IMG/VR virus record: IMGVR_UViG_2778261673_000008
Coordinates: 1 to 43,490 of that record
Length of the DNA stretch: 43,490 bases
Direction: 5' to 3' (one strand)
Source: a virus
Lineage: Duplodnaviria > Heunggongvirae > Uroviricota > Caudoviricetes
The notes under the pieces were generated by a model. The model saw nothing but the letters and a program-made list of their open reading frames with translations, was not told the origin of the DNA and did not search any database. This document shows, piece by piece, positions 1 through 33,325 of this stretch. How positions within the stretch are numbered: the stretch's first letter is position 1; every line of letters begins with the position of its first letter. A program made the position numbers and the translations under genes.

Positions 1-1257
1 GTGCTTACCGATACAAAATTAAAAAACCTCAAGCCGCAGGACAAACTGTACAAGGTCTCCGATCGTGACGGGCTGTATGTAGCTGTGCTTACGTCAGGTA
101 CGGTCTCGTTTCGCTATGACTACCGTATCAACGGTCGCCGCGAAACACTGGTAATCGGGCAGTATGGGCGTGACGGTATCAGCCTGGCAGAAGCGCGAGA
201 AGAACTGATTGCTGCAAAGAAGCTGCTTAAAGCAGGCCAGTCACCGGCTGCGGCTAAACGTGACGGTATCAAAAAGATTCGTGGTGCCGAGACGTTTGCG
301 GTACATACCGACAGTTATATGAAACACGTCATCCTGGCTGACAGTACCCGCGCAATGAAGCAGGCGGTGATCGACCGTGACATACTTCCTGTTCTTGGTA
401 ACAAAATGATGGCTGAAATTACCACATCGATGGTTCGTGATTTGTGTGACCGGATTGTCGAACGCGGCGGCCGGGCAACAGCAGTGCAGGCCAGGGAGAT
501 CATCAGCAGCGTATACCGTCATGCCAATGACCGTGGTCATGGTTTGTTTAATCCTGCTGCTGACATTAAACCTTCGTCTATCGCCATATTTAAACCACGA
601 GAGCGAACACTGACACCAGAAGAAATTGGTCTGTTCTTCCGCACGCTGGATGCCATTGGTGCTATGGGCACTATGAAAATGGCTTTAAAGCTGGTGCTTA
701 TCACTATGGTTCGTAAAGGCGAATTCACCAATGCAACGTGGGACGAAATAGATTTTAAAAAATGGACATGGACAATTCCTTCAGACCGCATGAAGGGAAG
801 CCGGGCGCACGTTATTTACCTGCCTAAACAGGCACAGGATATATTGGTCGGGCTGCAGATGTGCGCTGGTGGAAGTGAATATCTGGTTCCTGGTCGTTAC
901 AACTTCCGGAAGCCATTATCTAATGCCGCGCTGAACTCTCTGATCGACAGAACGGTGAAAATAATAAATGAAAATGGTGAGCATATTCAGGACTTCACCG
1001 TACACGATATGCGCCGTACAGCCAGTACGTTATTGCATGAGGCTGGTTATCCTTCAGACTGGATTGAAAAGGCTCTGGCACATGAGCAGAAAGGTGTGCG
1101 CGCCGTATATAACAAAGCGGAATACGCCAGACAGCGCGCCTACATGTTGCAGCAGTGGGCAGATATGATTGATTCCTGGATTGACGGGGAGCATACGGAT
1201 CTGATTCCGTTCTCCCCGTCGAAGTTTGAGAAGTGGATGGAAGACAGTAATAAATAA
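1..1257 (+). CDS. int: Tyrosine recombinase / phage integrase (P4-type)
   Basis: 418 aa ORF from GTG at pos 1; N-terminus LTDTKLKNLKP...GLYVAV...FRYDYRINGRRETL is characteristic of P4/CP4-57-type integrases; C-terminal HDMRRTAST catalytic region. Confidence 0.85.
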   Translation: MLTDTKLKNLKPQDKLYKVSDRDGLYVAVLTSGTVSFRYDYRINGRRETLVIGQYGRDGISLAEAREELIAAKKLLKAGQSPAAAKRDGIKKIRGAETFAVHTDSYMKHVILADSTRAMKQAVIDRDILPVLGNKMMAEITTSMVRDLCDRIVERGGRATAVQAREIISSVYRHANDRGHGLFNPAADIKPSSIAIFKPRERTLTPEEIGLFFRTLDAIGAMGTMKMALKLVLITMVRKGEFTNATWDEIDFKKWTWTIPSDRMKGSRAHVIYLPKQAQDILVGLQMCAGGSEYLVPGRYNFRKPLSNAALNSLIDRTVKIINENGEHIQDFTVHDMRRTASTLLHEAGYPSDWIEKALAHEQKGVRAVYNKAEYARQRAYMLQQWADMIDSWIDGEHTDLIPFSPSKFEKWMEDSNK

Positions 1258-1259
1258 TT

Positions 1260-1919
1260 CTATCCTTCCTGGACTTTGGTAAGCGTCAGATTTCCGCAGA
1301 ACACTGCGCCGGTGTCGATGTACATCTGGTTTGCATACACCAGTGGGTGATGTGCTGGCGTATGACCGAAGATGAACAAATCGGCACCGGTTATCTCCGA
1401 GACAATACCGTCCTGCGCGTCGCTAACCCGCTCACGATTCCATATCACCATTTCTTCCGGTACTGGCTTATCGAATGCGTATTCGTTGTGCGGGTAGTCT
1501 GCGTGGCAGATGACGACCTTCTTATTGCCGGTAACCAGTTCGATAATCATCGGGAGGTTGGTAACCTTTGGCAGAAGGTATTTGAGTTGCACATCCTGCT
1601 CAGAATCAAGTTGGTGCCACCATCCACCGCCGTTTGACATCCAATGTCCGAAACTTCCGCCGTTGACCAGTGCATCCAGCATCATCTGCTCATGGTTGCC
1701 ACGAACAGCTCGGAACCACGGCATAGTAATCAAATCCAGGCATTCGACGTTTTCAGCGCCGCGGTCAACAAGGTCACCAACGGAAATAAGCAAATCGCGC
1801 GCCGGGTCGAATGAAACTTTGTCGAGTTCGTTCATCAGCAGCGTGTAGCACCCATGCAGATCGCCGACGACGAAGATATTGCACCAGTCAGCGCCATTGA
1901 TGCGTTGATATAGGTTCAT
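1260..1919 (-). CDS. Ser/Thr protein phosphatase, lambda PPase-like (calcineurin-like metallophosphoesterase)
   Basis: From MNLYQR: motifs GDLHG, GDLVDRG, GNHE; closely resembles lambda phosphatase (nin ORF221) and E. coli PrpA/PrpB from memory. ATG overlaps the upstream TGA stop (ATGA). Confidence 0.85.
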
Positions 1920-2566
1920 GCTGCACGCTCCCGCCCCTGGTTGTCTGTTGGTGACAGCGGAGCATTGCTGAATGCATTTGTTAATCCGCCAATATCCAAC
2001 GCGTATCCAGGGTGTAGTTGCACTGCCGGGTCTTCGCACTGATTACCCCAAACATCGAAGCCATGAGACGACTGGCGGGCGAACAGTTCAATGCGAGAAA
2101 CATCGCCTAACAATTGCACAAGTTTTTCACGAACGACATCTGGTTTTCTTGAATGCTCAAGCCGCGGTGCGGTAAATGACTGAACGATCCCTGCATTAAT
2201 GCGCGGAGGTAGTTTTCCCTTTACTGCAAACAGGCAATCTTCACTATTGGCGCGAGTCATGTGACCCATACCCATAACCAGTTTATCTTGTTGTCGACTA
2301 CCACATTTTATCCACGTGAAGCCCTTCATGGTCATCAGACGGAATCCCCAGGATTCAACAACTTTTAGTGCTTCGAGTGGTTGTGTTGGCACCCACCACA
2401 TGGCCAACAGACAGTTTTCATCGGCCAAATCCCACACAGGAAGGCGGCAGATATCAAGCACACTCATAACCGGATATTTAAAACCGGCACCGCGATTACC
2501 ATCTGCGGCTTTGTCCCGGTATACCCAGGGTGGATCTGCATAGATTAGTGTGTATTTCTTAGTCAT
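1916..2566 (-). CDS. MT-A70 family N6-adenine DNA methyltransferase (orphan)
   Basis: Start at [14 protein letters not shown]; DPPW catalytic motif typical of MT-A70-like phage methylases; GGGGTGG RBS upstream. Confidence 0.8.
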
Positions 2567-2858
2567 AAACCACCCCACAACATCCTATGCCGCTATAGTC
2601 GCCACGGCGAAGGCCGTTACCTTTTGTGATACATTGGTCCCTGCGAACCGCGATCCTTGCACGTTCAACATCACCAGAAGCAACATCCATACACTGAAGC
2701 CAAAGGTGAGCGGCAATGCGGAACTGCCCTTTTTTCTCTCTTTCAATCGCGCGTTTTTCGATCTCTATCGCCGCAGGAGTAACGGCGACAATCTTTGACG
2801 GACTGCGCATTGAAACCTTGTTCATGTGATATTTTTCAAGTCGGCTTAACTTTCTCAC
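2559..2858 (-). CDS. Hypothetical protein (99 aa; start uncertain)
   Basis: ORF overlaps the methyltransferase start by 8 nt; GTG start with GAGAGGG upstream; no recognisable domain. Confidence 0.3.
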   Translation of the reverse strand: MRKLSRLEKYHMNKVSMRSPSKIVAVTPAAIEIEKRAIEREKKGQFRIAAHLWLQCMDVASGDVERARIAVRRDQCITKGNGLRRGDYSGIGCCGVVYD

Positions 2859-2967
2859 TTAATCCAACCCTCTCTGAAAATTAATGCCAGCAGATAAAGC
2901 CATGCTGAAACAGAGGCCAGGAATAAGTACCATCCTGACCATTTGCTCCAGTGCCTTAGCAGCACAC

Positions 2968-3216
2968 TCATGCAGCGTTGCTCACAGGACGATATACACG
3001 TTGCTGAACAGGAGGCTTTTTACCCTGGAACTCTGCCGGGCTTGCTGCCTGACGTTCATCAAGCCAACGCTCAACTTCATCACGGTTCCATGCGCAGCGT
3101 TTATCGGTGATATACCAGCGTTTAGGAAATTCCCCTGCGCGCTCCATACGGTCGATAGTGCTCCATGACAGTGGCACCACCGCCAGGAGTTCCTTCTTAC
3201 CTAATGCACCTTTCAT
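2968..3216 (-). CDS. AlpA-family DNA-binding protein (likely excisionase/regulator)
   Basis: 82 aa; LLAVVPLSWSTIDRMERAGEFPKRW...DEVERWL resembles AlpA/Xis winged-helix proteins; sits between recombination genes and int. Confidence 0.7.
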   Translation of the reverse strand: MKGALGKKELLAVVPLSWSTIDRMERAGEFPKRWYITDKRCAWNRDEVERWLDERQAASPAEFQGKKPPVQQRVYRPVSNAA

Positions 3217-3265
3217 AAATACCTCTCTTGGTTGCAGTGCGGCGCGCGTGGCGCCGCGGTGGTGG

Positions 3266-4147
3266 TTACATAGATGTTTCGTTTAATTCTTCCCGACGAA
3301 CGCTGTAAACGTCGGTGGCTTTTGCCAGCAGTTCGTCATCATCTGAAAGTTTTTGTGCAATGTATTTGTAAGCCTTATCCAGTTCGGAGACAGTGCTGTA
3401 ATTCATCGCTGCGCTGGTAAAGGCCATCAGCATTTCTTCTGGGTCACGGCTATCCGCTTTACGCGTTTGCTCATCAGGCTTTTTCACTGATTTAGCGTTG
3501 ATCAGACTGTTCATTCCCGCAGCAGTAGTCGTTTGCGGAGTAATGTCTCGCTCAACGCGCGGTGCCGTTTCCTGTAATTCGTCAGGGGTGTAAACACCGA
3601 GAAGTACATCAGGAGCGTGCAGGCGAGCCCATCGTTTCGTGCAAAGATAGGCAAGCTGCTGGCGCGGATCCTGTTCCCACAATGGAGAGTTACGCACTCC
3701 GGCTTGCGCCATACTGATGGTAAGCTCACGGGGTTCTGCTTCTCCTTTAAGAACTGCTGACACAGTTACCGTCAGATTCGGTGATTTATCTGTTTTGCCG
3801 TTAACATTCGACCAGTCACCGCTCCAGCGATAATTCAGGCGTGTCGCTAGCAGGCTGGAAGAGGATACGACCGCGTTTACCAACTGTGCTTCGTAGCCTA
3901 ACGTTCCGTTTACCACATGCGTTTTCTGCGCCACGGCGAAAGGGTTCATTCCCCACTGTGCCGCCTGCATGGTCACCGCCAGACAATCGGCAGGTTTGCC
4001 TTCAAGATGTTTCGGTACAGTCGCTTTGCTTTGTGACATCAACTCCGCGAAACGCACCAGTTGATTCATGCCCTCCGGGCTGAAGATTGCCGCAGCAGTA
4101 CCTACAGTTGCGCCTGGTTGTGATGTGATTGCGATATCATTGCTCAT
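3266..4147 (-). CDS. Single-strand annealing protein (RecT/Red-beta-like)
   Basis: 293 aa; QWGMNPF...NGTLGYEAQ resembles the Bet/RecT core; translationally coupled to the downstream exonuclease. Confidence 0.6.
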   Translation of the reverse strand: MSNDIAITSQPGATVGTAAAIFSPEGMNQLVRFAELMSQSKATVPKHLEGKPADCLAVTMQAAQWGMNPFAVAQKTHVVNGTLGYEAQLVNAVVSSSSLLATRLNYRWSGDWSNVNGKTDKSPNLTVTVSAVLKGEAEPRELTISMAQAGVRNSPLWEQDPRQQLAYLCTKRWARLHAPDVLLGVYTPDELQETAPRVERDITPQTTTAAGMNSLINAKSVKKPDEQTRKADSRDPEEMLMAFTSAAMNYSTVSELDKAYKYIAQKLSDDDELLAKATDVYSVRREELNETSM

Positions 4148-4965
4148 ACGTACATATCCTGTTTACGTGCCCAGTCAGGGCGTTTAATAATTTCCACTCC
4201 GCCCCACTCATCGTTGATGCGGCATTCGTGATAGGTATTCAGATCCCGGCGGAACAGAGCGTGCCCGGCATCGACATCCGGCGCATCCAGCTCGAACACG
4301 CGTACCGGATATCGACCACAATCAATGCTTTCGCTCACGGCAAGAAAGAAAAAACCATGCGGCTGACCAGTAACCCTCATTGCGCCTTCGCGGTACATTG
4401 CGTCCTGCACGTGGTAGCGGAATTCCTCGATGTGGCGTGCAAAACGGTCCATATCTGCAACCTTTTTCACGTCGACGATCACGTTGTGCTCGTTCAGCCA
4501 TTTGTCTGGACGAATGCGGCACAACTCACCCGTATCTTCATCGTTCCAGTACATTGATGCTTCGCAGTAACCAGGGGCTTCCAGCATCCAGCGTGCCGCC
4601 GGGTGAGCCATTGCGCTATCACGCATCAGCTCCAGTTTCCGCCACTGCTCGGCATCAAGTACCGTAATCCCCATATCCGCCACATCACGAAGAAATGCCT
4701 CTTCGTCAGCTTTACCTTGTTTCGTCCGACGATCGAATTTCGGTGAAACGATGAAGCGTTTGTCGAATTCTCCAGGTTCCAGAAGCAGGCAGTGCAATGC
4801 GGTTCCCATATCCAGTGCAGACTTTTTCTCTTCGTCTTCTGGTGCTGCCTGAACCCATTTAAGAAGCGCCGGATTCTTGGCAACCATGTCCAGTTGCGAC
4901 TTACTCACGCCGTCACCGGCGTGGTAGTCTTCGTTGCTGATGTCGAAATAAATTCCCGGTTTCAT
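4144..4965 (-). CDS. PD-(D/E)XK exonuclease (RecE / exonuclease VIII C-terminal-domain-like)
   Basis: 273 aa; N-terminal GIYFDISNEDYHAGDG and RPD...VDVKK nuclease motif; paired with the RecT-like gene. Confidence 0.65.
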   Translation of the reverse strand: MKPGIYFDISNEDYHAGDGVSKSQLDMVAKNPALLKWVQAAPEDEEKKSALDMGTALHCLLLEPGEFDKRFIVSPKFDRRTKQGKADEEAFLRDVADMGITVLDAEQWRKLELMRDSAMAHPAARWMLEAPGYCEASMYWNDEDTGELCRIRPDKWLNEHNVIVDVKKVADMDRFARHIEEFRYHVQDAMYREGAMRVTGQPHGFFFLAVSESIDCGRYPVRVFELDAPDVDAGHALFRRDLNTYHECRINDEWGGVEIIKRPDWARKQDMYV

Positions 4966-5435: not shown

Positions 5436-5513
5436 TTACCGTTGAGGTAATAATTATGCGTATATGGTTTGATGTCAATAGATATGAGTTAAAAAAATTA
5501 CCCGTTAGGTAAT
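5436..5513. promoter_or_regulatory. Left operator region: two copies of palindrome (A/G)TTACC-N5-GGTAAT
   Basis: GTTACC GTTGA GGTAAT at 5435-5451 and ATTACC CGTTA GGTAAT at 5497-5513, upstream of the leftward early operon. Confidence 0.55.
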
Positions 5514-5523
5514 CGAATAGGCA

Positions 5524-5548
5524 ATAAAAAAGCCGCCATAAGGCGGCT
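5524..5548 (-). terminator. Rho-independent terminator downstream of repressor gene
   Basis: GCCGCC-ATAA-GGCGGC hairpin followed by a T-run on the minus strand. Confidence 0.7.
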
Positions 5549-5569
5549 TACTTACTGAAAAATATGGTT

Positions 5570-6905: not shown

Positions 6906-7721
6906 ATGAGCAGACATGCAACAGATTGGGCCTGGGAGACAGATCCAGGTAGCTCATCATTAAAGCTCATACTGCTCTCGATGGCTGACAGAGCCGATGA
7001 ATATAACCTCTGCTACCCCAGCATAGAACGCCTCGTTAAAGACACTTGCCTGAATAAAAAAACCGTGCAGGCCGGGCTTATATCGCTCATGAAAATGGGG
7101 CTTATTTCAGATACCGGAGAGAGAAAGGGAGCGACAAAAAGAGTGCGGGTTTTCTCTCTTAATATAACCAAAAACGGGAACATTAAAGGCAACCGGGAGG
7201 GGGGCAATGAACCCGAAAACGTTAATGTTCCCGAAAACGGGAATATACCCAAAAACGGGATGTTGAATGATCCCAAAAACGGGATGTTGAATGATCCCAA
7301 AAACGGGATCCAGAACCAGTCATATAACCAGTCATATAACCAAGAGAGGGAGAGCAGGACAAAAAACGGGGATTCTGTGCATCATGACCCCGGCGCAAAC
7401 AACGCCGTGATGAATAACTTTGTTCCTCCTGGTGGGCCAGGGCAATTAGGCAAATTTGTCATGCATGAACAATGGCAGCCATCAGATGACTTTCTTCGGA
7501 AAAGCTCATTGCAGGGGATCTACCTGGACAGTCTGCCAACGGCACAGGAACTTGCAGAGTTCAGAATTTACTGGATGGCTGAGGGTAAGGCATACCATCA
7601 GGCACAGTGGGAGCAGAAGCTGGCAAGGCGACTGCAGATTAGCAGACAGAAGCAATCAACATTACCTGATAACAACGTTCCGCACTGGAACAGCCCTGAA
7701 GCATGGGAGGATTTCTTGTGA
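6906..7721 (+). CDS. Replication initiator (lambda O-like role) containing iterons
   Basis: 271 aa; N-terminal winged-helix-like region; internal repeats PENGNIPKNGMLNDPKNGMLNDPKNG are encoded by DNA iterons; immediately upstream of the P-like gene. Confidence 0.65.
   Translation: MSRHATDWAWETDPGSSSLKLILLSMADRADEYNLCYPSIERLVKDTCLNKKTVQAGLISLMKMGLISDTGERKGATKRVRVFSLNITKNGNIKGNREGGNEPENVNVPENGNIPKNGMLNDPKNGMLNDPKNGIQNQSYNQSYNQERESRTKNGDSVHHDPGANNAVMNNFVPPGGPGQLGKFVMHEQWQPSDDFLRKSSLQGIYLDSLPTAQELAEFRIYWMAEGKAYHQAQWEQKLARRLQISRQKQSTLPDNNVPHWNSPEAWEDFL
7168..7308 (+). repeat. Iteron array (putative phage replication origin) inside the O-like gene
   Basis: CCC(A/G)AAAACGGGA repeated at 7168, 7212 (partial), 7230, 7248, 7272, 7296 with 18-24 bp spacing, followed by tandem CAGTCATATAACC x2 (7317-7342). 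Confidence 0.7.
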
Positions 7722-8503
7722 ACAACGTTTTTACCGCGATACAAAACCGTGACGGAGAAGCCCTTTCTCGCATGTCAGGTTATGAGCATCAGTACACCAA
7801 CAATGACAACGTGGTGAACATGTCAGCAGAGAGGCTTGTTGATGCCCTTTTCAAACAGCTGAAACAACTGTTTCCGGCGGCAGTGGTAACCAACCTGAAG
7901 ACGCCAGAGCAGGAAGTTGCTGCAAAACAGCAGTGGATTGCTGCGTTTGCCGAAGGGGGGATCCGAACCCGTGAACAGGTTTCTGCTGGTATGCGCCACG
8001 CCCGAGCCAGTGAATCTCCGTTCTGGCCGTCGCCTGGGCAATTCATCAAGTGGTGTAAAGACAGCAAGATGGTTCTTGGCGTCACCATTGACGATGTGAT
8101 GGCAGAGTTTCACCGGTACAGCAAGGAAAAAAGTTTATATCCTGGTGGTCCCGAAAGATTCCCGTGGCGGCATCCGGTTATGTACTGGGTCGTATGTGAT
8201 ACCCGCCGTGCAATGTATCAGCGCCAGCTTAGCGAGATTGAGGTTGAGAAACACGCGCGCAGGCTGCTCGATGATTGGGCGAAAAAGGTGGCTTCCGGAC
8301 AGCAGATACCCGATCCGGTGATCAGCATACAGGCAAAGCCAGAACCCATGAGTACGCCTCCGGACACAGGGAGAGATGTTTACCATCCACCAGGGCGAAG
8401 TTTCGGGTGCATGCCTAACGCCGCCACCCTTGGGGGAATAACACCGGCGCAGTGGCTGATGGAGGAATACAGGCGAGGAAAGGCAGCAGGATTTATCAAG
8501 TAA
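7718..8503 (+). CDS. Replication protein P-like (helicase loader)
   Basis: QQWIAAFAEGGIRTREQVSAGMRHARASESPFWPSPGQFIKWC is close to lambda P (RRQWVLAFRENGITTMEQVNAGMRVARRQNRPFLPSPGQFVAWC, from memory); GTG start with GGGAGGA RBS overlapping the O-like stop. Confidence 0.8.
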   Translation: MNNVFTAIQNRDGEALSRMSGYEHQYTNNDNVVNMSAERLVDALFKQLKQLFPAAVVTNLKTPEQEVAAKQQWIAAFAEGGIRTREQVSAGMRHARASESPFWPSPGQFIKWCKDSKMVLGVTIDDVMAEFHRYSKEKSLYPGGPERFPWRHPVMYWVVCDTRRAMYQRQLSEIEVEKHARRLLDDWAKKVASGQQIPDPVISIQAKPEPMSTPPDTGRDVYHPPGRSFGCMPNAATLGGITPAQWLMEEYRRGKAAGFIK

Positions 8504-8539
8504 TACCAGCGCGATAGCGCATTTTTTTACGCCTATATG

Positions 8540-8618
8540 ATTACCTTGTAGGTAATAAAATGTTCTAATTTCTATTGATTTCATGTCTTATGTGGTTTTT
8601 AATTACCTAAGGGGTAAA
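8540..8618. promoter_or_regulatory. Two operator palindromes upstream of the 8621 operon
   Basis: ATTACC TTGTA GGTAAT (8540-8556) and ATTACC TAAGG GGTAAA (8602-8618, 3 nt before the ATG), with TATGTGGTT between them. Confidence 0.5.
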
Positions 8619-8620
8619 TC

Positions 8621-8965
8621 ATGAGAAAACAGATACAGGCTCTTGGTCGACTCAAAACAGGCCAGATGAACAAAACAGAATCTGCGTATTGCCAGCACCT
8701 TGAGCTGCGTAAACGTGCAGGAGAAATCGTCTGGTATCGATTTGAGGGTATCAAGTTGCGGTTAGCTGACAACACGTTCTATACGCCCGATTTTGCTGTG
8801 ATGCTCGCCACCGGCGAGATGGAACTGCACGAAGTGAAAGGTTTCTGGACCGACGACGCCAGGGTGAAAACCAAAGTCGCCGCAGATCAGTATCCGTTCC
8901 GAATCATCGGGGTAACGGTTAAACCAAAGAAAGCAGGTGGTGGCTGGAACATCGAAGAGTTCTGA
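8621..8965 (+). CDS. Small phage protein, possibly DUF1064-like nuclease fold
   Basis: 114 aa; YTPDF...ELHEVKG...D pattern; assignment by recollection only. Confidence 0.4.
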   Translation: MRKQIQALGRLKTGQMNKTESAYCQHLELRKRAGEIVWYRFEGIKLRLADNTFYTPDFAVMLATGEMELHEVKGFWTDDARVKTKVAADQYPFRIIGVTVKPKKAGGGWNIEEF

Positions 8966-9005
8966 ATCGACGATCTTTTTAGTTATCAATGTTATCAATA
9001 AGTTA

Positions 9006-9014
9006 TGTGGATAA
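9006..9014 (-). promoter_or_regulatory. Consensus DnaA box (TTATCCACA on minus strand) next to a tandem GTTATCAAT repeat
   Basis: TGTGGATAA at 9006-9014; GTTATCAAT x2 at 8982-8999. Confidence 0.35.
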
Positions 9015-9026
9015 GCGAGGGTAAAG

Positions 9027-9509
9027 ATGAAACCGAGTTATGAAGAACTTGAAGAGCAACTGAACAGATCTCGACGTCTCTGTGATGCTGCTCTGGCTAA
9101 TGAGCGGGCATGGGAAACAGCCATGATGCAGGCATGCGGTGAAGACGGTCCGAAGTCAGTAGCTGATAAGTTTGCGGAACTTGAAGCCAGATGCGCGGCG
9201 CTGGCCGCTGAGAATGCGGGGCTGAAACACGCAATGGCCGTAACTCTTGAGCATGTGTCGGTCACGGATGCAGGGCAGGCTGGTGTTGCTGCAATGATTA
9301 TCAACGATGCCCTACACCATAGCGAAACCCCAGCCACCGACGCTTTCCTGGCTGAAGTGCGGGCGCAGGCGTTTAATGACCTTTGCTCGGTGTTCGTTAA
9401 GGACGCGACGGTTGCCGGGCTGGACGATGGCGACATCGTTACGGTGAAAGAAGCGACGGACGCCCTGCTGCATTGTGCGGAACAGATTCGCAAAGGAGGC
9501 AGTCAGTGA
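9027..9509 (+). CDS. Hypothetical protein (160 aa)
   Basis: ORF with GAGGG RBS; coiled-coil-like N-terminus; no recognised domain. Confidence 0.4.
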   Translation: MKPSYEELEEQLNRSRRLCDAALANERAWETAMMQACGEDGPKSVADKFAELEARCAALAAENAGLKHAMAVTLEHVSVTDAGQAGVAAMIINDALHHSETPATDAFLAEVRAQAFNDLCSVFVKDATVAGLDDGDIVTVKEATDALLHCAEQIRKGGSQ

Positions 9510-9940
9510 GCAAAATTAATTACCAGGCACTGCGTGAGGCGGCAGAGAAAGCCGGTGAAGATAAGTGGCAGGCTAAAAAAATAAATGGTGATTTTTTCGT
9601 TATTCGTCACGGTAGTTATACAAGACAGCATGGCTACACATCGTATCAACCCATTGCGGAGATTGATTGTAAGCCAGTCCGGGATTTTGTTGCCAAGGCT
9701 AATCCGGCTATCGTGCTGGAATTACTGGATGAACTGGAAGCAGCAAAAAAGCGCATTGCAGAACTGGAAAGCAACGAAGTCCTTGAAGTCGGAAATCAGT
9801 TTCTTGTTGTTCGCCATCCTGGGAAAACTCCTGTCATTAAGCACTGCACTGGTGACCTGGAAGAGTTTCTGCGGAAGTTAATCGAACAAGACCCGTTAGT
9901 AACTATCGACATCATTACGCATCAAAGGAGAGTGATATGA
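9506..9940 (+). CDS. Hypothetical protein (about 145 aa)
   Basis: GTG start after AGGAGG, overlapping upstream stop; translation MSKINYQALREAAEKA... Confidence 0.4.
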   Translation: MSKINYQALREAAEKAGEDKWQAKKINGDFFVIRHGSYTRQHGYTSYQPIAEIDCKPVRDFVAKANPAIVLELLDELEAAKKRIAELESNEVLEVGNQFLVVRHPGKTPVIKHCTGDLEEFLRKLIEQDPLVTIDIITHQRRVI

Positions 9941-10506
9941 CCACTATAACCGATAAGAAACAGTATCCAGGCGAGCAATATCTTAATGAGCTGATCACCA
10001 ACATAGAGTTTGCGGCAAGGACACCAGTTGAAGTCGTGAGAGCAATGGCAGCAGAGCTACAGAAGCGGCGCGAAGCTGATAGTGCCGAACCTGCAAGTAA
10101 TCATGAAGAGTTGCCGCTTGATTATCTCCAAGGTCAAAAAGATGGTCTTGAATGGGCTGCGCAGCTTGCAGAAGCAAATCACCCACAAACTGGCGACTGG
10201 ATTTACGATGACCCGCTGGAGCTGGCTAAAGCTATCAGAAAAGGTCCTGACATGCCCGAATTCGATGGACCAACTCCGGTAACTCCGGATGGTTGGATAA
10301 GCTGTAGTGAGCGAATGCCGGAAGACACCAAAATGTTACTGGCATTTAGTCAAGGTCAAATAGTGGCAGCATATTGGAACTGGGTAATGAGTCCAATTGA
10401 TTACAAAAAATATAGAGCTTTCACATATTTATCAGGAAATATCTTGGATGACGTAACCCACTGGATGCCGCTGCCAGAACCGCCGCAGGAGGTTAACCGT
10501 GGCTAA
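9937..10506 (+). CDS. DUF551-like protein
   Basis: C-terminal WISCSERMPED...THWMPLPEPP is typical of DUF551 phage proteins. Confidence 0.55.
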   Translation: MTTITDKKQYPGEQYLNELITNIEFAARTPVEVVRAMAAELQKRREADSAEPASNHEELPLDYLQGQKDGLEWAAQLAEANHPQTGDWIYDDPLELAKAIRKGPDMPEFDGPTPVTPDGWISCSERMPEDTKMLLAFSQGQIVAAYWNWVMSPIDYKKYRAFTYLSGNILDDVTHWMPLPEPPQEVNRG

Positions 10507-10780
10507 CCTGCAACTTGCCGTCAAAGGTGAATACTTCGATGCCATGATTCGCAGAGAGAAAACGGAAGAGTATCGCCTGTGTAATGACTATTGGAATAAG
10601 CGCCTCGTTAACCGTAAGTATGACCGCCTGATTATCACAAAGGGATATCCGAAGCGTGACGATTCCAGCCGCAGAATTGACGTTCCGTATGGCGGATATG
10701 AAATCAAGACAATCACACATCCGCACTTCGGCGATAAACCGGTAAAGGTTTACGCGATAAAGGTAAATATTGATGGCTAA
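10499..10780 (+). CDS. ASCH/PUA-like small protein
   Basis: 93 aa; N-terminal GEYFDAMIRREKTEEYR resembles the ASCH fold pattern; AGGAGG RBS, GTG start. Confidence 0.4.
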   Translation: MANLQLAVKGEYFDAMIRREKTEEYRLCNDYWNKRLVNRKYDRLIITKGYPKRDDSSRRIDVPYGGYEIKTITHPHFGDKPVKVYAIKVNIDG

Positions 10781-11111
10781 ATCAGCAGCAGAGCGCAAAG
10801 CCGCTCAGAGAGCCAGACAAGCTGCATCCGGTGTACGTAAGCTGGAGATTGTGCTTGATGCTCAGGAAATTGAAATGCTGGAGCGTAACTGTGCCACGCG
10901 TCGCCCCGGGCGTGCGCCTTACGAATTTGGTGAGTATATAGCGTTACTGATCCGCCAGGATGATGCACGCGTGCGCGGGCGTATAAAATCGATCAGCAGA
11001 AAACGTTGCGGTAAGTGCGGCGAGAGAGTTCCAGTTAATTCATGCCCGTGTAATGGTGACTCGCAATGCTGGGTGACTAAAGGCTGGCATGAAACGAAAT
11101 TAATAGTGTGA
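10770..11111 (+). CDS. Hypothetical protein with Cys-rich C-terminus (possible zinc ribbon)
   Basis: 113 aa; C-terminal CGKCGERVPVNSCPCNGDSQC; immediately upstream of the packaging genes; stop codon lies inside the palindrome GTGACATGTCACG. Confidence 0.4.
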   Translation: MMAKSAAERKAAQRARQAASGVRKLEIVLDAQEIEMLERNCATRRPGRAPYEFGEYIALLIRQDDARVRGRIKSISRKRCGKCGERVPVNSCPCNGDSQCWVTKGWHETKLIV

Positions 11112-11160
11112 CATGTCACGAGTAGATTATGCATGATGAATTTGATGTGTTTTGAATACT

Positions 11161-11186
11161 GCCGCCAACTATGGCGGCTTTATTTT
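11161..11186 (+). terminator. Rho-independent terminator
   Basis: GCCGCC-AACTAT-GGCGGC followed by TTTATTTT. Confidence 0.7.
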
Positions 11187-11196
11187 GCATGGTACT

Positions 11197-11231
11197 ATTA
11201 CCACAACGGTAACTATTACCACGGTGGTTAT
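11197..11231. promoter_or_regulatory. Two operator palindromes immediately upstream of the small terminase gene
   Basis: ATTACC ACAAC GGTAAC (11197-11213) and ATTACC ACGGT GGTTAT (11215-11231, reaching the start codon). Confidence 0.45.
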
Positions 11232-11826
11232 GATGCCTGCTGAACCTAAAACCTATAAACGCAAATCAACGCAATTTAAGCCACTAACAGCAATGCAGGA
11301 GGCTTATTGCCAGTCATACATCAAAACGCCTGAAAACCAGACTCAGGCAGCGATTAACGCAGGATTCTCCCCAAATACAGCGGCAGTTAAAGCCAGTGTC
11401 ATGATGCGCGATGAACGCATTCAAAAACGGATTGCCGAGTTGATGGAGGAGCGCAACAAACGAATGCGCGTCAGTGCTGATTACGTTCTCATGCGCCTGG
11501 TGGAGATCGACCAGATGGACGTGATCGACATCCTCAACGACGATGGGAGCCTTAAACCAATCCGTGAGTGGCCGAAAATCTGGCGCACTACGCTTAGTGG
11601 CTTTGATCTGTCATCGACCATCATGAACATGAACGAGGATTCGATAGAGACAATCCTCAAAAAAATTAAATGGCCTGACAAGGTGAAGAACCTCGAACTG
11701 ATTGGTAAGCACGTCGACGTCAACGCGTTCAAAGAACGCATGGATGTTAATGTGAATGTGACAATTGCTGATCGCATAGCAGCAGCCAGGAAGAGACTGA
11801 AAGAACGTCAGGATGGCAATCAGTGA
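11230..11826 (+). CDS. Terminase small subunit
   Basis: Start taken at MMPAEPKTYKRKS; AYCQSYIKTPENQTQAAINAGFSPNTAAVKASVMMRDERIQKRI resembles the Terminase_2 small-subunit family; stop overlaps large terminase start. Confidence 0.75.
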   Translation: MMPAEPKTYKRKSTQFKPLTAMQEAYCQSYIKTPENQTQAAINAGFSPNTAAVKASVMMRDERIQKRIAELMEERNKRMRVSADYVLMRLVEIDQMDVIDILNDDGSLKPIREWPKIWRTTLSGFDLSSTIMNMNEDSIETILKKIKWPDKVKNLELIGKHVDVNAFKERMDVNVNVTIADRIAAARKRLKERQDGNQ

Positions 11827-13298
11827 CAGATGCAGCGTTATCTCCTGAAGAGCAGTTGATCGAGGATATTGCAGGGTTCACTCACGATCCGCTTGGCTAT
11901 GCCCTCTATGCGTTCCCGTGGGGGGAAGAGGGGACTGAACTGGCACATGCTTCCGGCCCACGTCAGTGGCAGGCCGATGCGTTCCGAGAGATACGTGATC
12001 ACCTGCAGAATCCAGAGACGCGTTATCAGCCGCTTATGCTGGCACGTGCTTCTGGTCACGGTATTGGTAAATCCGCATTCATCTCAATGCTAATCAACTG
12101 GGGCATGTCCACTTGCGAGGATTGTAAGGTCGTGGTGACCGCCAACACCGACAACCAGCTACGAACGAAGACCTGGCCGGAAATTATCAAGTGGTCGAAC
12201 CTTGCTATCACGAAAGACTGGTTTACCTGTACCGCTACCGCGATGTACAGCAATGATCCTGGGCACGACAAGCGGTGGCGAGCTGACGCAATCCCCTGGT
12301 CTGAGCACAACACTGAGGCATTCGCCGGACTACACAACGAGCGCAAACGCATCATCGTGGTATTCGATGAAGCGTCGAACATTGCGGATCTGGTGTGGGA
12401 AGTTGCTGAGGGTGCGCTTACGGACGAAGACACTGAGATTATCTGGGTGGCGTTCGGAAACCCTACACGTAATACCGGGCGTTTTCGCGAATGTTTCCGC
12501 AAATACAAACACCGCTGGAAAACTGCGCAGATTGACAGCCGGACGGTGGAAGGTACTAACAAACAGCAGTTGCAGAAATGGGTTGATGACTACGGGGAAG
12601 ACAGCGACTTCGTTAAAATCCGTGTGCGCGGCATATTCCCTGATGCATCTGAATTGCAGTTTATCCCTACCGGTCTTACTGATGAGGCAATGAAACGGGT
12701 GGTAACCGCTGCGCAGGTGGCACATGCTCCGGTGATAATCGGTGTTGACCCGGCATATTCAGGCGTTGATGACGCGGTGATATACCTGCGGCAGGGGTTG
12801 CATAGTAAGGTGCTATGGACTGGCAACAAGACCACTGACGATCTGATTATGGCGAAGCGTATCGCTGACTTTGAAGACCAGTATCAGGCTGACGCGGTGT
12901 TCATCGACTTCGGTTACGGAACCGGTCTGAAGTCAATCGGTGACGGCTGGGGGCGCACATGGCAACTTGTTCCGTTCGGTGGTGCGTCAACTGACCCTCA
13001 GATGCTCAACAAGCGCGGGGAGATGTTCAACTCATGCAAGACATGGCTGAGGTTGGGCGGGATGCTGGATGACCAGGAAACAGCGGACGATCTGTCGGCG
13101 GCAGAGTACAAAGTTCGCGTGGACGGTAAAATCGTTATCGAACCGAAGGAAGATATCAAAGAACGACTTGGGCGTTCGCCTGGTAAAGGCGATGCGCTAC
13201 TGCTGACGTTTGCTTTCCCGGTGTCAAAGCGCCTGCGACTTCCCGGGCAGCAGAACCAGCAAGGCAAGGCGCTTACCGAGTACGATCCATATGCTTAG
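11823..13298 (+). CDS. Terminase large subunit
   Basis: 491 aa; Walker A-like ASGHGIGKS and Walker B-like IVVFDEA, then nuclease region; GTG start overlapping terS stop. Confidence 0.85.
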   Translation: MTDAALSPEEQLIEDIAGFTHDPLGYALYAFPWGEEGTELAHASGPRQWQADAFREIRDHLQNPETRYQPLMLARASGHGIGKSAFISMLINWGMSTCEDCKVVVTANTDNQLRTKTWPEIIKWSNLAITKDWFTCTATAMYSNDPGHDKRWRADAIPWSEHNTEAFAGLHNERKRIIVVFDEASNIADLVWEVAEGALTDEDTEIIWVAFGNPTRNTGRFRECFRKYKHRWKTAQIDSRTVEGTNKQQLQKWVDDYGEDSDFVKIRVRGIFPDASELQFIPTGLTDEAMKRVVTAAQVAHAPVIIGVDPAYSGVDDAVIYLRQGLHSKVLWTGNKTTDDLIMAKRIADFEDQYQADAVFIDFGYGTGLKSIGDGWGRTWQLVPFGGASTDPQMLNKRGEMFNSCKTWLRLGGMLDDQETADDLSAAEYKVRVDGKIVIEPKEDIKERLGRSPGKGDALLLTFAFPVSKRLRLPGQQNQQGKALTEYDPYA

Positions 13299-14113
13299 TC
13301 TTTATTTTTATCCTCGAAACCTGATAATCCAGATAGAACACCAAAGTTATTAAAAACGTTTGGCTTACCAGATTTTAATCCGGATAAGTTGTGTTGCTCC
13401 AAAAAGTTGCTAATTGTTTGGCCGTTGCCAAGTGCAAGGCTTTTTATTTGAGATTTTTCAGGGTATTTGAGTTTGTATTCGTCGAAATCATTTTGGAGGG
13501 TCTTATATGCCTCATTCATTCTTCCAAGAGTTTCCGATATCTCTTTTAATGAATGATTTAGAGCTGCTAACTGAGCACTGGCGGATCTCAATTCGTCATC
13601 TTTAGCTTTCAACTCGGCAGTCAATTCCCCCATACTATTCTTTGATCGAATAATCTCTTCTTTCATCTCTTGGATGTCTTTTTCCGCGCCAGTCTTAACT
13701 TTGTCGTATGTAACATCTTTTTTAGCCAATAACCTCTGCAGTCTTGTTTCACGCTGGATTTTTCTTGCCTTCAGGTGATTTTCGATTGAGTCATTATTAT
13801 CAAGAGGCTTTGCTTGCCATACGTTAATGATATTGTTTACCCATGGTAATAGGCAGCAGATAGCAATTACAGATAAGCATGGATAAAACATAACAGTTTT
13901 CCATGTGCTGTTATCTGAGATATATGAAATTTTATCTATTATGTTTGATTTGCTAAAAAATAGATAAAGAATTGATTTCCAGTTGAAGGCGCACCAGGAC
14001 ATAACAAAAGCACCAAGCACAGGGTTTTTGGCTCGATTCACGGCAGTATTGGCAGTAGATAAAAACAGCTCTTTGAACGATTCAAACATGCTAATTACCT
14101 TGAAGTTTTTCAT
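13295..14113 (-). CDS. AT-rich moron: membrane protein with long coiled-coil domain
   Basis: Start taken at MKNFKV; two hydrophobic segments (about residues 32-53 and 73-96), then a 130-aa K/E-rich coiled coil; opposite strand to flanking late genes; operator palindrome 4 nt upstream of the ATG. Confidence 0.5.
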   Translation of the reverse strand: MKNFKVISMFESFKELFLSTANTAVNRAKNPVLGAFVMSWCAFNWKSILYLFFSKSNIIDKISYISDNSTWKTVMFYPCLSVIAICCLLPWVNNIINVWQAKPLDNNDSIENHLKARKIQRETRLQRLLAKKDVTYDKVKTGAEKDIQEMKEEIIRSKNSMGELTAELKAKDDELRSASAQLAALNHSLKEISETLGRMNEAYKTLQNDFDEYKLKYPEKSQIKSLALGNGQTISNFLEQHNLSGLKSGKPNVFNNFGVLSGLSGFEDKNKD

Positions 14114-14116
14114 GAT

Positions 14117-14133
14117 TATACCTTTAAGGTAAT
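14117..14133. promoter_or_regulatory. Operator palindrome TATACC-N5-GGTAAT overlapping the moron promoter
   Basis: Minus-strand reading ATTACCTTAAAGGTATAATCATG: palindrome includes a TATAAT hexamer directly before the ATG. Confidence 0.45.
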
Positions 14134-14148
14134 TTGCGGTCATCAAGC

Positions 14149-14172
14149 AAAAAAATGCCCGGCGAACCGGGC
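14149..14172 (-). terminator. Rho-independent terminator between tRNA and moron
   Basis: GCCCGG-CGAA-CCGGGC hairpin with T-run on the minus strand. Confidence 0.6.
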
Positions 14173-14249
14173 GAACTGGAAGCAATGAGTTATGCCTTCC
14201 GTGGCTGTACTGGTTTACAGCATGAAGTCATCGCAATGGCGTCCTGCTG

Positions 14250-14335: not shown

Positions 14336-14412
14336 TGGCGTGGCATGCAGGATTCGAACCTGCGACCAACCGCTTAGAAGGCGGTTGCTCTGTCCAACTG
14401 AGCTAATGCCAC
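14336..14412 (-). tRNA. tRNA-Arg (anticodon UCU), phage-encoded
   Basis: Hand-folded cloverleaf: acceptor GTGGCAT/ATGCCAC, D-arm GCTC/GAGC, anticodon stem ACCGC/GCGGT with loop CTTCTAA, T-arm GCAGG-TTCGAAT-CCTGC, encoded CCA. Confidence 0.85.
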
Positions 14413-31573: not shown

Positions 31574-31599
31574 ACAAAAAAAGCCCGCAGCGCGGGCTT
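31574..31599 (-). terminator. Rho-independent terminator of the 31598-32137 gene
   Basis: AAGCCCGC-AGC-GCGGGCTT hairpin with 7-nt T-run on the minus strand, overlapping the stop codon. Confidence 0.75.
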
Positions 31600-32137
31600 A
31601 CCAAAACTTGTACCACGGTGATTTATCCTTCAATGGACAATCCTTCCATCGTGTGGCCAACCATTCATATTCTTTAAAATATGTGTTTATGTTTTCTTTT
31701 TCTCTAATGGCTTGTATAAGAGGTAGCGCAATCTGATAGTTATTTACAACGGAGCTGTAAAATACTTCCTTAATCATGGTCTCATCATAAGTTTTCCGCT
31801 TCACGCTCACAGCCATGCGTTCGTAGAAACCTAGACAGTAAATTATTTCTCTCTTCTCTGTCTTTTCTTCATCCGTAAGATCAGCCTGCCCATTGCTTGG
31901 ATACATATAAGAGCGGAATGATTTGTTCGATTCGTGAATGCGGCGCATAGTAGATAGGCCTTTCTTATAATCTACATCAAACCTGCTTTCACCAAGGAAT
32001 ACTGAAGTGTGTACTTTTCTCGCTGTATTTACATTATAAATAATAGTAGCGATAGCTATGAACAAGCCAAGCGAAACCGCGACTGCACTTACTATTTGAG
32101 CCACGGCCATGGCAAATTGCATTTCTTCACTTAACAC
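31598..32137 (-). CDS. AT-rich membrane-anchored protein of unknown function
   Basis: Single N-terminal TM helix then a 150-aa domain rich in Y/K/E; very low GC relative to neighbours; own terminator. Start GTG 32137 or ATG 32122. Confidence 0.5.
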   Translation of the reverse strand: MLSEEMQFAMAVAQIVSAVAVSLGLFIAIATIIYNVNTARKVHTSVFLGESRFDVDYKKGLSTMRRIHESNKSFRSYMYPSNGQADLTDEEKTEKREIIYCLGFYERMAVSVKRKTYDETMIKEVFYSSVVNNYQIALPLIQAIREKENINTYFKEYEWLATRWKDCPLKDKSPWYKFW

Positions 32138-32264
32138 AAACTGTCTCCAGACATGAAAACGGGGCCTAATGGCCCCGTCATTAAACTATCCGAATGTTAA
32201 ACGCCTTCGTACTCGTCAAATTTTCTCATGTGGGCTCCTCCTGTATCGGTGCCTAATCGCTATG

Positions 32265-32281
32265 GATCACCCGTGAGGTAA
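32265..32281. promoter_or_regulatory. Operator-like palindrome ATCACC-N5-GGTAAT
   Basis: ATCACC CGTGA GGTAAT between the Bro gene 3' end and the 32137 gene start. Confidence 0.35.
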
Positions 32282-32346
32282 TAGTAAGCTATTCACCTGC
32301 AATCTGTACAGAATTATTTAAAGGCACATCCCTGTGCCGCCGTCCG

Positions 32347-33057
32347 TCAGAAGAACCCTGCTTTGTCGTTGATATACTCCGCGTGGGTCTGGATATCACG
32401 CAGGCATTTGCTCACACCGACAATGTAGCAGAACATGGTGGTCAGCTCCGCCGCCGCGCCCGATACATCATGCCCGTCGTCCTGCAACTGATTCAGCAGA
32501 TTCATCAGCAATGAGTTCTCCGTCAGGCCGAGAACACCAGACGGCGAATGAATCAGACTGCGGTAGCCGGGCTTCAGTGGGGCACTGTAGGTTTTGTTCT
32601 CTATCTTCATTGCCTGCATCACTGCTGACGCCGTGGCGTTGGCTACCTGGTCGGCAACCATCTTTATGCGTTCTTCCTGCGGGAACGAGTTTTTAATGTA
32701 GCTTCCTGTTCGACGGATCTGAGGAAGTACCTCACCTGTAACCCATTTACGAAAGCGGTAGGGGATAGTGCCTAGTGTCACTGCGTCGCGGCAGCGGAGG
32801 ATCAGTGTGTAGAGGCCTGACTCGGAGATGATGTTGATCTCTTTTACTCGGCTGTCAAAAATTGCACGATGTTCATGCCCTATGTTGAACATAGACCTTT
32901 CATCATCATCCAGTTTTTCAAGTGCTTGGGTGACGTTTTGGATACGCAGCGCACTACAAACGTCTTGGGCTACAAACCATGGTTGGCCATCGATAATGAT
33001 GGAACGGATAGGGTTAACAGATTCAAATTTGAAGATGGCAGTTTGAGCATTAGCCAT
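32347..33057 (-). CDS. Bro-N domain antirepressor-like protein
   Basis: Start taken at MANAQTAIFKFE (GGAG RBS); N-terminal IFKFESVNPIRSIIIDGQPWFVAQDVCSAL is a Bro-N signature; C-terminal domain is paralogous to ORF 34206-34463. Confidence 0.7.
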   Translation of the reverse strand: MANAQTAIFKFESVNPIRSIIIDGQPWFVAQDVCSALRIQNVTQALEKLDDDERSMFNIGHEHRAIFDSRVKEINIISESGLYTLILRCRDAVTLGTIPYRFRKWVTGEVLPQIRRTGSYIKNSFPQEERIKMVADQVANATASAVMQAMKIENKTYSAPLKPGYRSLIHSPSGVLGLTENSLLMNLLNQLQDDGHDVSGAAAELTTMFCYIVGVSKCLRDIQTHAEYINDKAGFF

Positions 33058-33325
33058 GGTGGTTATCTCCACTTAGTGATTTTAATCACCACCGCAACGC
33101 CAATTACTGGTGGTGAACTGGACAAGGTTGGCGTACCGGCCTAAGTGGTACCGGTGTCCTTTCGGACCCCTGCCCAGCCCACCATAATTCGGATATAGCT
33201 GTGCTTAACGCATAAAAAAACCACGTCTGGCGTGGTATGCGCCACTTAGTAACCCGGGACGCCAATCCCGGCACTGGATTTTGCCAGTGCCCGATTACTA
33301 TGGCACAAGAGGAGTGCGATGTAAA

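Follow-up and report, generated by a model that had tools for sequence, protein, structure and literature searches.

The interval from 1260 to 2858 of the window (the whole 43,490-nucleotide stretch of DNA that was analysed) comprises the last three genes of a probable early-left operon. The preferred reading, to which a probability of about three in four is given, is that its MT-A70 methylase is a resident gene of that operon and its phosphatase an independent, swappable cargo gene. An initial annotation had placed a lambda-type Ser/Thr phosphatase and an MT-A70 methylase here and both are present, but they are not the only genes of the interval, as a third, PerC-like gene occupies 2559..2825 (or 2858). 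The same annotation had taken co-translation of the two as a hint of coordinated function. This was not borne out: the same ATGA precedes a DUF1382 gene in phiV10 and an unrelated 82-aa open reading frame (orf82) in HEMP4, overlaps are usual in this operon, and a phosphatase was found near the methylase at a single one of 40 related loci.

1..1257, plus strand: tyrosine integrase, 418 aa (Pfam Arm-DNA-bind_3, Phage_int_M, Phage_integrase)
1241..1913, no strand assigned: swapped cargo cassette relative to phiV10, ~673 bp (alignments with phiV10 and PAS61)
1260..1919, minus strand: NinI/lambda-type binuclear-metal Ser/Thr protein phosphatase, 219 aa (ATG start, TAG stop)
1916..1919, minus strand: ATGA overlap of methylase stop and phosphatase start (from the sequence; junction conserved in phiV10 and HEMP4)
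1916..2566, minus strand: orphan MT-A70 (beta-class, DPPW) N6-adenine methyltransferase, 216 aa (ATG start, TGA stop)
2559..2825, minus strand: PerC-like small transcriptional activator, 88 aa (Pfam PerC 5e-07, phrog_868 9.6e-55)
2855..2971, minus strand: predicted membrane protein, 38 aa, orf38 (translation; the phiV10 and SPN1S annotations name a membrane protein)
2968..3216, minus strand: AlpA-family excisionase or regulator, 82 aa (Pfam Phage_AlpA; phrog_66 'excisionase and transcriptional regulator')
3266..4147, minus strand: RecT recombinase (open reading frame and PGAP name in a 99.9%-identical genome)
4144..4965, minus strand: PD-(D/E)XK exonuclease (open reading frame and PGAP name in the same genome)
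5450..5478, minus strand: candidate early-left promoter, TTGACA-17 nt-AATTAT (consensus scan, 10/12 matches, a pattern no more frequent than in shuffled sequence)

Host element and early-left operon

The host element is an E. coli prophage of the phiV10/epsilon15 podovirus type, the taxonomy of its relatives being Uetakevirus; a lambda-type phage was ruled out. It is inserted beside guaA, and the PGAP context in the 99.9%-identical genome reads guaA, int ... yfgI. Phages PAS61 and BP9 share 98.4-98.5% DNA identity with it over 3.3 kb and have the same gene order, whereas phiV10 and other relatives match at 97-99% without the phosphatase. The gene order is already annotated (serine/threonine protein phosphatase and MT-A70 family methyltransferase) in RefSeq entries, among them APEC O1 and ETEC H10407, and in PAS61; the PAS61 paper does not mention either gene, and no methyltransferase is named in the ZX5 paper. 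Both proteins are ordinary members of well-known families, and finding them has little weight as a discovery. The GATC count of the prophage was uninformative: it has 159 sites, where one model predicts 153 and another 210.

As first proposed, the methylase and phosphatase genes close the leftward operon, next to int. The integrase gene, which encodes P4-type arm-binding and catalytic domains, converges with the operon, leaving 2 bp between its stop and that of the phosphatase. The RecT and exonuclease genes are upstream members of the same operon. Four-base overlaps occur at five of its eight junctions, including both ends of orf38, and the end of the PerC-like gene extends 8 nt into the start of the methylase gene; the PerC-like protein would have 99 aa if the GTG at 2858 were used. 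The ATGA shared by the methylase stop and the phosphatase start was confirmed at bases 1916-1919 of the minus strand, and a GGGAG Shine-Dalgarno-like element is found 8 nt upstream of the phosphatase ATG, within the 3' end of the methylase gene. The longer open reading frames 1260..2039 and 1916..2578, with GTG starts, were set aside as listing artefacts, as annotated relatives start at ATG.

The candidate promoter is located just downstream of the terminator (5530-5549) of a repressor-like gene. Between 5450 and 1260 the consensus scan returned no promoter-like or terminator-like site on the minus strand, and the sole minus-strand terminator-like site that the pattern scan found beyond the candidate promoter is at 235..223, inside int and past the end of the phosphatase gene. 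Upon induction or infection, transcription would begin at the candidate promoter near 5450-5478 and proceed through two small open reading frames, exo, recT, alpA, orf38, the PerC-like gene, the methylase gene and finally the phosphatase gene. Ribosomes ending at the methylase TGA would either restart at the overlapping ATG or initiate afresh at GGGAG, and in both cases the phosphatase would be made along with the rest of the operon.

The phosphatase and its variable slot

Identity with the phiV10 integrase gene is lost at ...TGGATGG, at about 1240, and resumes at 1914 (GTTCAT, which is ATGAAC on the minus strand). The intervening cassette takes in all of the phosphatase gene except its first two codons, together with the 2-bp spacer and the end of the integrase gene, whose last five codons, from about 1241, belong to it. 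The GC content of the cassette, 0.517 against 0.49 in the flanks, was uninformative.

Three alleles of the slot were counted in 5,426 complete E. coli genomes, by DNA similarity thresholds rather than by prophage-by-prophage inspection: DUF1382 in 373, the phosphatase in about 146 (some 27% of these prophages), and orf82, as in phage HEMP4, together with the Ant antirepressor (AntA) in 19. All three begin at the same ATGA. Where phiV10 has DUF1382, SPN1S and epsilon15 have 58-59-aa open reading frames without a Pfam match, and at related loci in other genera methylase and int are separated by 30 to ~500 bp, with no phosphatase in between. Judged from these comparisons, the fixed terminal slot takes at least three interchangeable cargo genes, of which the phosphatase is one. 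Recombination would place the cassettes between the ATGA(AC) start and the last integrase codons. The best nin-region DNA relatives of the phosphatase gene, in HK225 and phi80, are only 78-79% identical, and so the databases searched hold no recent donor.

Classical morons are cargo genes flanked by a promoter and a terminator of their own. The phosphatase gene was rejected as one, since the consensus scan found neither element flanking it on the minus strand and it starts inside the preceding gene.

The assignment of the phosphatase to the lambda type was upheld by profile and structure searches. Residues 1-217 match the lambda phosphatase structure 1G5B (E=6.7e-100), and the protein matches phrog_246 'NinI-like serine-threonine phosphatase' (9e-108) and Pfam Metallophos. 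Its alignment with lambda Nin221 is free of gaps across 217 residues (67% identity), and the motifs GDLHG (19-23), GDLVDRG (48-54) and GNHE (74-77), as well as H139 and H186, are identical to those of lambda in the alignments. GDxHG, GDxVDRG and GNHE are the signature motifs of the lambda phosphatase (1G5B), and its distal histidines bind metal. From its sequence the protein is predicted to be, in all likelihood, an active phosphoprotein phosphatase that depends on Mn, as lambda NinI does.

It could be argued that one or both genes are decaying, non-functional remnants, as prophage accessory genes often decay and some Stx2a phages have truncated (partial 93-187 matches) or IS-disrupted copies of the methylase (PMC10810198). 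This is scarcely credible here: both open reading frames are full length against the family models and the solved structure, their catalytic motifs are intact, the phosphatase is at least 99% conserved in 130 genomes, and both genes are present in PAS61, a phage recovered in infective form (PMC11522302).

If the phosphatase is active, it may dephosphorylate host proteins while the phage grows lytically. The literature search on the in vivo role of NinI and other phage Ser/Thr phosphatases yielded only the non-essentiality of ninI for plaque formation in lambda (PMC10695390); a mycobacteriophage metallophosphoesterase found there is unrelated and acts as a nuclease. The phosphatase would be expected to be dispensable here, its effect varying with the host or the conditions.

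A more specific version would make the phosphatase a counter-defence or host-modulating effector with a defined target, for example phosphorylation by a host Ser/Thr-kinase abortive-infection system or a stress-signalling pathway, and the terminal slot a hotspot for accessory genes. Such a role would fit a slot that holds diverse interchangeable accessory genes, an antirepressor among them, a highly conserved allele found in about 27% of these prophages, and the dispensability of ninI in the laboratory, as expected of a conditional accessory function. However, PADLOC assigned no defence or anti-defence identity to the phosphatase (nor to the PerC-like open reading frame, orf38, DUF1382 or orf82), the literature gave no target, and the consensus scan showed neither the promoter nor the terminator that a classical moron would bring with it. 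A dedicated effector is therefore considered unlikely, although it would refine the swappable-cargo explanation rather than truly oppose it.

Linkage of the methylase and phosphatase

The co-occurrence of the two genes was assessed at 40 species-level loci encoding relatives of the methylase. A phosphatase homologue was present within 3 kb at one of them and was not adjacent; at this exceptional locus (L026, from Ewingella) the two genes are on the same strand within ~1 kb. Conserved adjacency was consequently rejected, this single loose co-occurrence being all that was found. Conversely, this methylase is absent beside most NinI-type phosphatases, which are encoded in nin regions or, as in BUCT711, a Klebsiella Uetakevirus, in the rightward operon.

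The proposal that methylase and phosphatase form a functional pair, co-translated for host takeover or counter-defence, draws on the ATGA overlap and common operon, on the Ewingella locus, and on a close methylase relative that reportedly targets 16S rRNA in 30S subunits (PMC10810198). Both could, for instance, act on the translation apparatus, the one by methylating 16S rRNA and the other by dephosphorylating ribosomal proteins or translation factors. The proposal is nonetheless improbable. The same junction serves the DUF1382 and orf82 alleles, DUF1382 is the commoner neighbour (373 genomes versus ~146) and is also the neighbour in Stx2a phages, 39 of the 40 methylase loci have no phosphatase nearby, and most NinI genes are found without this methylase. 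As four-base overlaps occur at five of the eight junctions, coupling is a trait of the operon and not of this pair; in compact phage operons a 4-nt overlap alone does not amount to evidence of functional partnership.

The strongest form of the idea, in which the pair deliberately reprograms host translation on induction through MT-A70 action on 16S rRNA and phosphatase action on ribosomal proteins or translation factors, is very improbable. Were it true, the slot would serve to adjust how often induction occurs, and DUF1382, Ant and the phosphatase would be its alternative settings.

The slot also has a practical use. In phiV10-type prophages it offers a clean natural allele series (DUF1382, phosphatase, orf82 with Ant) with identical flanks, which makes isogenic tests of the in vivo role of a NinI-type phosphatase possible.

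The methylase, its substrate and comparison with known systems

The MT-A70 call was confirmed: the protein covers the whole Pfam model (PF05063; residues 1-172 of 172 in the model, E=1.2e-22, 81.1 bits against a cut-off of 23.9) and matches phrog_359 (2e-119). The catalytic motif IV, DPPW, is at residues 11-14, near the N-terminus in the permuted beta order, and is invariant in six aligned relatives. Residues 1-187 form the core; the C-terminal tail (188-216) is lineage-specific, and the tails of relatives diverge after residue 187. From these features the enzyme is most likely a SAM-dependent methyltransferase that acts on N6 of adenine in nucleic acid.

The methylase had been described as an orphan, and this was corroborated: PADLOC found no restriction enzyme or other defence-system match among its neighbours and ten other unassigned prophage open reading frames. 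A Type II restriction-modification system was rejected, as no cognate endonuclease is adjacent and PADLOC reported MTase_II for the methylase only.

The closest characterised relative is M.EcoPA8orf6770P (gp5 of the Stx2a phage phiPA8), with 82% identity over residues 1-187 in a comparison whose reference loci carry verbatim the terminator and primer flanks quoted in PMC10810198. Alone, that enzyme reportedly has weak, non-specific DNA activity; as a holoenzyme with PNB-2 it prefers 16S rRNA and 30S subunits and raises spontaneous induction, and a DPPW-to-APPA mutant lost function (PMC10810198). It shares the DPPW motif and is likewise encoded by a small MT-A70 gene in an int-proximal, early-region position. 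It differs in lineage (Sepvirinae rather than Uetakevirus), in its STEC-type tail after residue 187, which is unrelated to the tail here, and in its neighbours: PNB-2 (118 aa, winged-HTH) is encoded upstream where a PerC-like gene is found here, and a DUF1382 gene follows the methylase in Stx2a phages, as in phiV10, where the phosphatase is found here. The PerC-like open reading frame was rejected as a PNB-2 homologue, as BLASTP gave no alignment. PNB-2 itself has only a sub-threshold HTH_11 match in Pfam.

By analogy, the methylase of this prophage might act mainly on 16S rRNA and tune induction as M.EcoPA8orf6770P with PNB-2 does, rather than protect DNA as an anti-restriction function. The identity across the catalytic core, the substrate preference of the phiPA8 holoenzyme and the small size of the protein, which has no obvious target-recognition domain beyond the MT-A70 core, are consistent with this. 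On the other hand, no PNB-2 homologue was found in the window or, by tblastn, in any of the 40 related methylase loci; the C-terminal tail, which the authors of the phiPA8 study suggested may bind PNB-2, is replaced here; and the upstream neighbour varies (PerC-like here, DndB-like in SPN1S, small genes elsewhere). That study also left the modified rRNA base unidentified (PMC10810198), and M.EcoGV, described as highly similar, reportedly methylates GATC in DNA when overproduced, as cited second-hand (PMC10810198, PMC6602927). A role mainly on 16S rRNA is thus possible but doubtful. The best guess by analogy is that the substrate would be replicating phage or host DNA, methylated with low or GATC-like specificity, with 16S rRNA as the main alternative.

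The anti-restriction function suggested by the initial annotation is unproven: the reported target of the closest relative is 16S rRNA, which it methylates together with a partner absent here, and M.EcoGV is reported to methylate GATC. Unmethylated lysogen DNA would not be decisive, since prophage methylases such as M.EcoGI and M.EcoGII can be silent in lysogens (PMC5778455). As a close relative of a claimed 16S rRNA methyltransferase that lacks the specificity partner, the protein is well suited to showing whether the core enzyme methylates DNA or RNA.

Within the genus the methylase is closely shared: the phiV10 protein is 98% identical and those of SPN1S and epsilon15 are 76-77% identical. 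The PerC-like, 38-aa membrane protein, AlpA and RecT neighbours are the same in the Uetakevirus early-left operon; in SPN1S a DndB-like gene is directly upstream of the methylase. To judge from these comparisons, the methylase is a fixed, conserved gene of the early operon across the genus and is also present in Stx2a phages.

Further afield, the protein shares its Pfam domain with eukaryotic MT-A70 enzymes (METTL3, ciliate MTA1/AMT1), with PDB matches to ciliate MT-A70 proteins (~1e-13) and METTL3 (~3e-06). Those enzymes are heterodimers with an inactive paralogue and have extra domains, whereas the prophage protein is a lone one of 216 aa, without a paralogue in its vicinity. M.EcoGI and M.EcoGII are likewise orphan, prophage-encoded, beta-class adenine methyltransferases of E. 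coli, silent in lysogens and proposed to protect phage DNA (PMC5778455), but the analogy is functional only. Homology with M.EcoGII was rejected, as it is a 349-aa DPPY protein of another family with a central target-recognition region (PMC5778455), in contrast to the 216-aa, DPPW, MT-A70 protein here.

The phosphatase belongs to the same family as E. coli PrpA and PrpB (PphA/PphB), with which it aligns over its full length, and is distinguished from them by being phage-borne; it was rejected as an equivalog of either, scoring 266.1 bits against a cut-off of 326 (NF008516) and 221.5 against 332 (NF007425). Its nearest counterpart is lambda NinI, of the same length class (221 aa, against 219 aa here) and also in phrog_246. 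As the initial annotation correctly stated, the lambda gene is in the nin region; it lies in rightward orientation between ninH (Nin68) and Q, whereas here the gene comes last in the leftward operon, directly beside int.

Genes at 1260-2858 and their operon

The left end of the window holds the following features.

1..1257, plus strand: integrase gene (ORF list, raw sequence)
1260..1919, minus strand: phosphatase, 219 aa, ATG start, TAG stop (ORF list, junction translation)
1916..2566, minus strand: methyltransferase, 216 aa, ATG start, TGA stop (ORF list, junction translation)
2559..2825, minus strand: PerC-like ORF, 88 aa (99 aa with the GTG start at 2858)
5478..5450, minus strand: promoter-like site (consensus scan)

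The 219-aa and 216-aa ORFs have bases 1916-1919 in common (ATGA on the minus strand), and GGGAG lies 8 nt 5' of the phosphatase ATG. The coordinates and ATGA overlap in the initial annotation are therefore correct as read in the ORF list, raw sequence and junction translation. The two genes that it placed at 1260-2858 are there, but its title omitted a third, whose product is PerC-like by Pfam and PHROG matches.

Both family assignments were borne out. The phosphatase matched the lambda phosphatase crystal-structure sequence (1G5B; E=6.7e-100, residues 1-217) and phrog_246 ('NinI-like serine-threonine phosphatase'), and was 67% identical to lambda Nin221 with zero gaps. GDLHG, GDLVDRG, GNHE and the aligned His139 and His186 are the same as in lambda; from work on 1G5B, we take the former to be signature motifs and the histidines to be metal-binding. 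The protein is predicted from this conservation to be an active lambda-type phosphoprotein phosphatase; it scored below the NCBIfam equivalog cut-offs for both chromosomal proteins, PrpA and PrpB. The methylase matched the Pfam MT-A70 model over its entire length (E=1.2e-22), has DPPW at residues 11-14, and found ciliate MT-A70 and METTL3 chains in the PDB.

From the promoter-like site the minus-strand order is two small ORFs, exo, recT, alpA, a 38-aa membrane ORF, the perC-like gene, the methylase and the phosphatase, which is indeed distal in the leftward operon and beside int. Neighbouring genes overlap by 4 nt (ATGA or GTGA) at five of the eight junctions, by 8 nt at one and by 13 nt at another, so the methylase-phosphatase overlap is in the usual style of the operon. 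The scan found no minus-strand promoter- or terminator-like site within the operon, and the sole minus-strand terminator-like site past 5450 was inside int; co-transcription is thus plausible from scan and gene layout. The int and phosphatase genes converge with 2 bp between their stop codons (window 1255-1262) and no terminator between them, and early-left transcripts should therefore enter int antisense.

The hydrophobic 38-aa ORF (2855-2971, minus strand) has a 4-nt overlap on either side; the phiV10, SPN1S and PAS61 annotations call it a membrane protein, but PGAP left it uncalled in a near-identical E. coli genome. The only real intergenic gap of the operon, between recT and alpA (3217-3265), holds a GC-rich 7-bp stem-loop (GCGGCGC-N5-GCGCCGC) where the epsilon15 annotation places a 'transcriptional pausing' stem-loop; against shuffled sequences the fold was not significant (z = -1.2), and it has no T-run on its 3' side.

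The variable slot beside int

PAS61 and BP9 matched the leftmost 3.3 kb of the window at 98.4-98.5% identity with the order int / phosphatase / methylase kept, while phiV10, ZX5, O157 typing phages 9 and 10 and others matched it at 97-99% without the phosphatase. All of these phages are Uetakevirus (epsilon15-like) podoviruses. A complete genome 99.9% identical in this region carries the prophage between guaA and yfgI, and its annotation names epsilon15-type structural genes. The label 'lambda-type' therefore fits the phosphatase, but not the phage. Public records of phage and bacterial genomes already annotate this arrangement, but the paper on PAS61 leaves it unmentioned.

Alignment with phiV10 was lost at about 1240, within the last int codons, and regained at 1914 (GTTCAT, ATGAAC on the coding strand), which places the swapped segment at about 1241-1913. 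The start codon and second codon are common to the phosphatase and phiV10 alleles. The last five int codons vary with the allele (...WMEDSNK in the window, ...WMAGE in phiV10). In phiV10 the slot holds a 63-aa DUF1382 gene with a 4-nt overlap with the methylase stop; in HEMP4, an 82-aa ORF from the same ATGA and then an AntA-type antirepressor; and in SPN1S and epsilon15, unrelated 58-59-aa ORFs. Among 5,426 complete E. coli genomes, the DUF1382 allele, counted with both flanks, occurred in 373, the phosphatase allele in about 146 (130 at >=99% identity, 16 at 95-99%) and the HEMP4-type allele in 19. In every phosphatase-allele row inspected, APEC O1 and ETEC H10407 included, int and the MT-A70 gene flanked the phosphatase. 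Where other genera have this operon, methylase and int lie 30 to about 500 bp apart and no phosphatase separates them. The phosphatase is an occupant of a variable slot, which forms a natural allele series of modest value.

Co-translation had been taken as a hint of coordinated host takeover or counter-defence. That proposal found no comparative support: among 40 species-level loci with methylase relatives (57-91% identity), only one, in Ewingella, encoded a homologue of the phosphatase (49% identity) no more than 3 kb away, and several small ORFs separate it from the methylase. NinI-type genes elsewhere are neighbours of ninE in nin regions, with the nearest relatives by DNA sequence in HK225 and phi80 (78-79% identity). 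The homologue in BUCT711, a Klebsiella Uetakevirus, is instead in the rightward operon, beside a replication gene. DUF1382 is the commoner downstream partner of the methylase, in both phiV10-type and Stx2a phages. Its gene overlaps the 3' end of the MT-A70 gene in a phiV10-type podovirus (L001, 2755-2949) and a Stx2a Sepvirinae phage (L005, 4003-4299), and this neighbour, more conserved than the phosphatase, is kept despite differing methylase tails.

Lambda still forms plaques without ninI, provided that polar effects on Q are eliminated (PMC10695390), and no defence-related role of the phosphatase was found in the literature. On present evidence it is probably an accessory enzyme that is produced along with the other early-left genes and is of condition-dependent benefit.

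Other variable and accessory regions

A DndB-like (DGQHR) gene directly precedes the MT-A70 gene and overlaps it by 4 nt in SPN1S (L002, 3517-4512) and Citrobacter werkmanii (L018, 2009-3001), where the window has the PerC-like gene; a second variable slot thus lies immediately 5' of the methylase. Colinearity with the best-matching genome (L009, strain 20KM2222) breaks down in the nin-like region (about 8500-11800), and offset shifts of about 1.4 kb and 0.3 kb indicate further mosaic cassette differences (Ead/Ea22-like, DUF551 genes).

Five to six iteron-like direct repeats (7160-7351; consensus about ATATACCCAAAAACGGGA, spacing 18-24 bp) sit within an O-like/DnaT-like replication gene (6906..7721) and presumably mark the phage replication origin. 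A tRNA-Arg (anticodon TCT; 14336-14412, minus strand) lies downstream of the terminase genes, on the opposite strand to the structural genes, beside a 296-aa minus-strand ORF (13295..14185) with weak coiled-coil-type matches only. Two reverse-oriented cargo genes (31598-33072, minus strand), encoding DUF4760 and BRO-N family proteins, lie amid late genes before the tail-spike gene; neither had a PADLOC match.

Substrate of the methylase

The methylase is an orphan, as first proposed: neither its neighbours nor ten other unassigned prophage ORFs gave a restriction enzyme or other PADLOC match. M.EcoGII was rejected as a homologue; it belongs to a different family and is a functional analogue only.

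The closest studied relative is M.EcoPA8orf6770P of the Stx2a phage phiPA8 (82% identity over methylase residues 1-187); the reference Stx2a loci contained verbatim the terminator and primer flanks quoted in PMC10810198. By itself this enzyme is reported to have weak, non-specific activity; with PNB-2, the product of its upstream gene, it reportedly forms a 1:1 complex that prefers 16S rRNA and 30S subunits, and a DPPW-to-APPA mutation is reported to abolish its effect on spontaneous induction (PMC10810198). M.EcoGV, called highly similar to it, methylates GATC in DNA when overproduced (as noted in PMC10810198) and is listed as GATC-specific (PMC6602927).

The favoured reading is that the window protein methylates adenine in DNA, with a specificity that is low or GATC-like, and that it is produced early in the lytic cycle; rRNA as the main substrate has about one chance in four. 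The methylase may have an anti-restriction role, and would be of use for testing DNA against rRNA as the substrate. The preference for DNA follows from comparison with phiPA8: a PNB-2 homologue is absent from the window (BLASTP of the upstream ORF; tblastn of 40 related loci was likewise negative), beyond residue 187 the methylase and the Stx-phage enzyme have unrelated tails, and the variable upstream position holds a PerC-like gene where phiPA8 has PNB-2.
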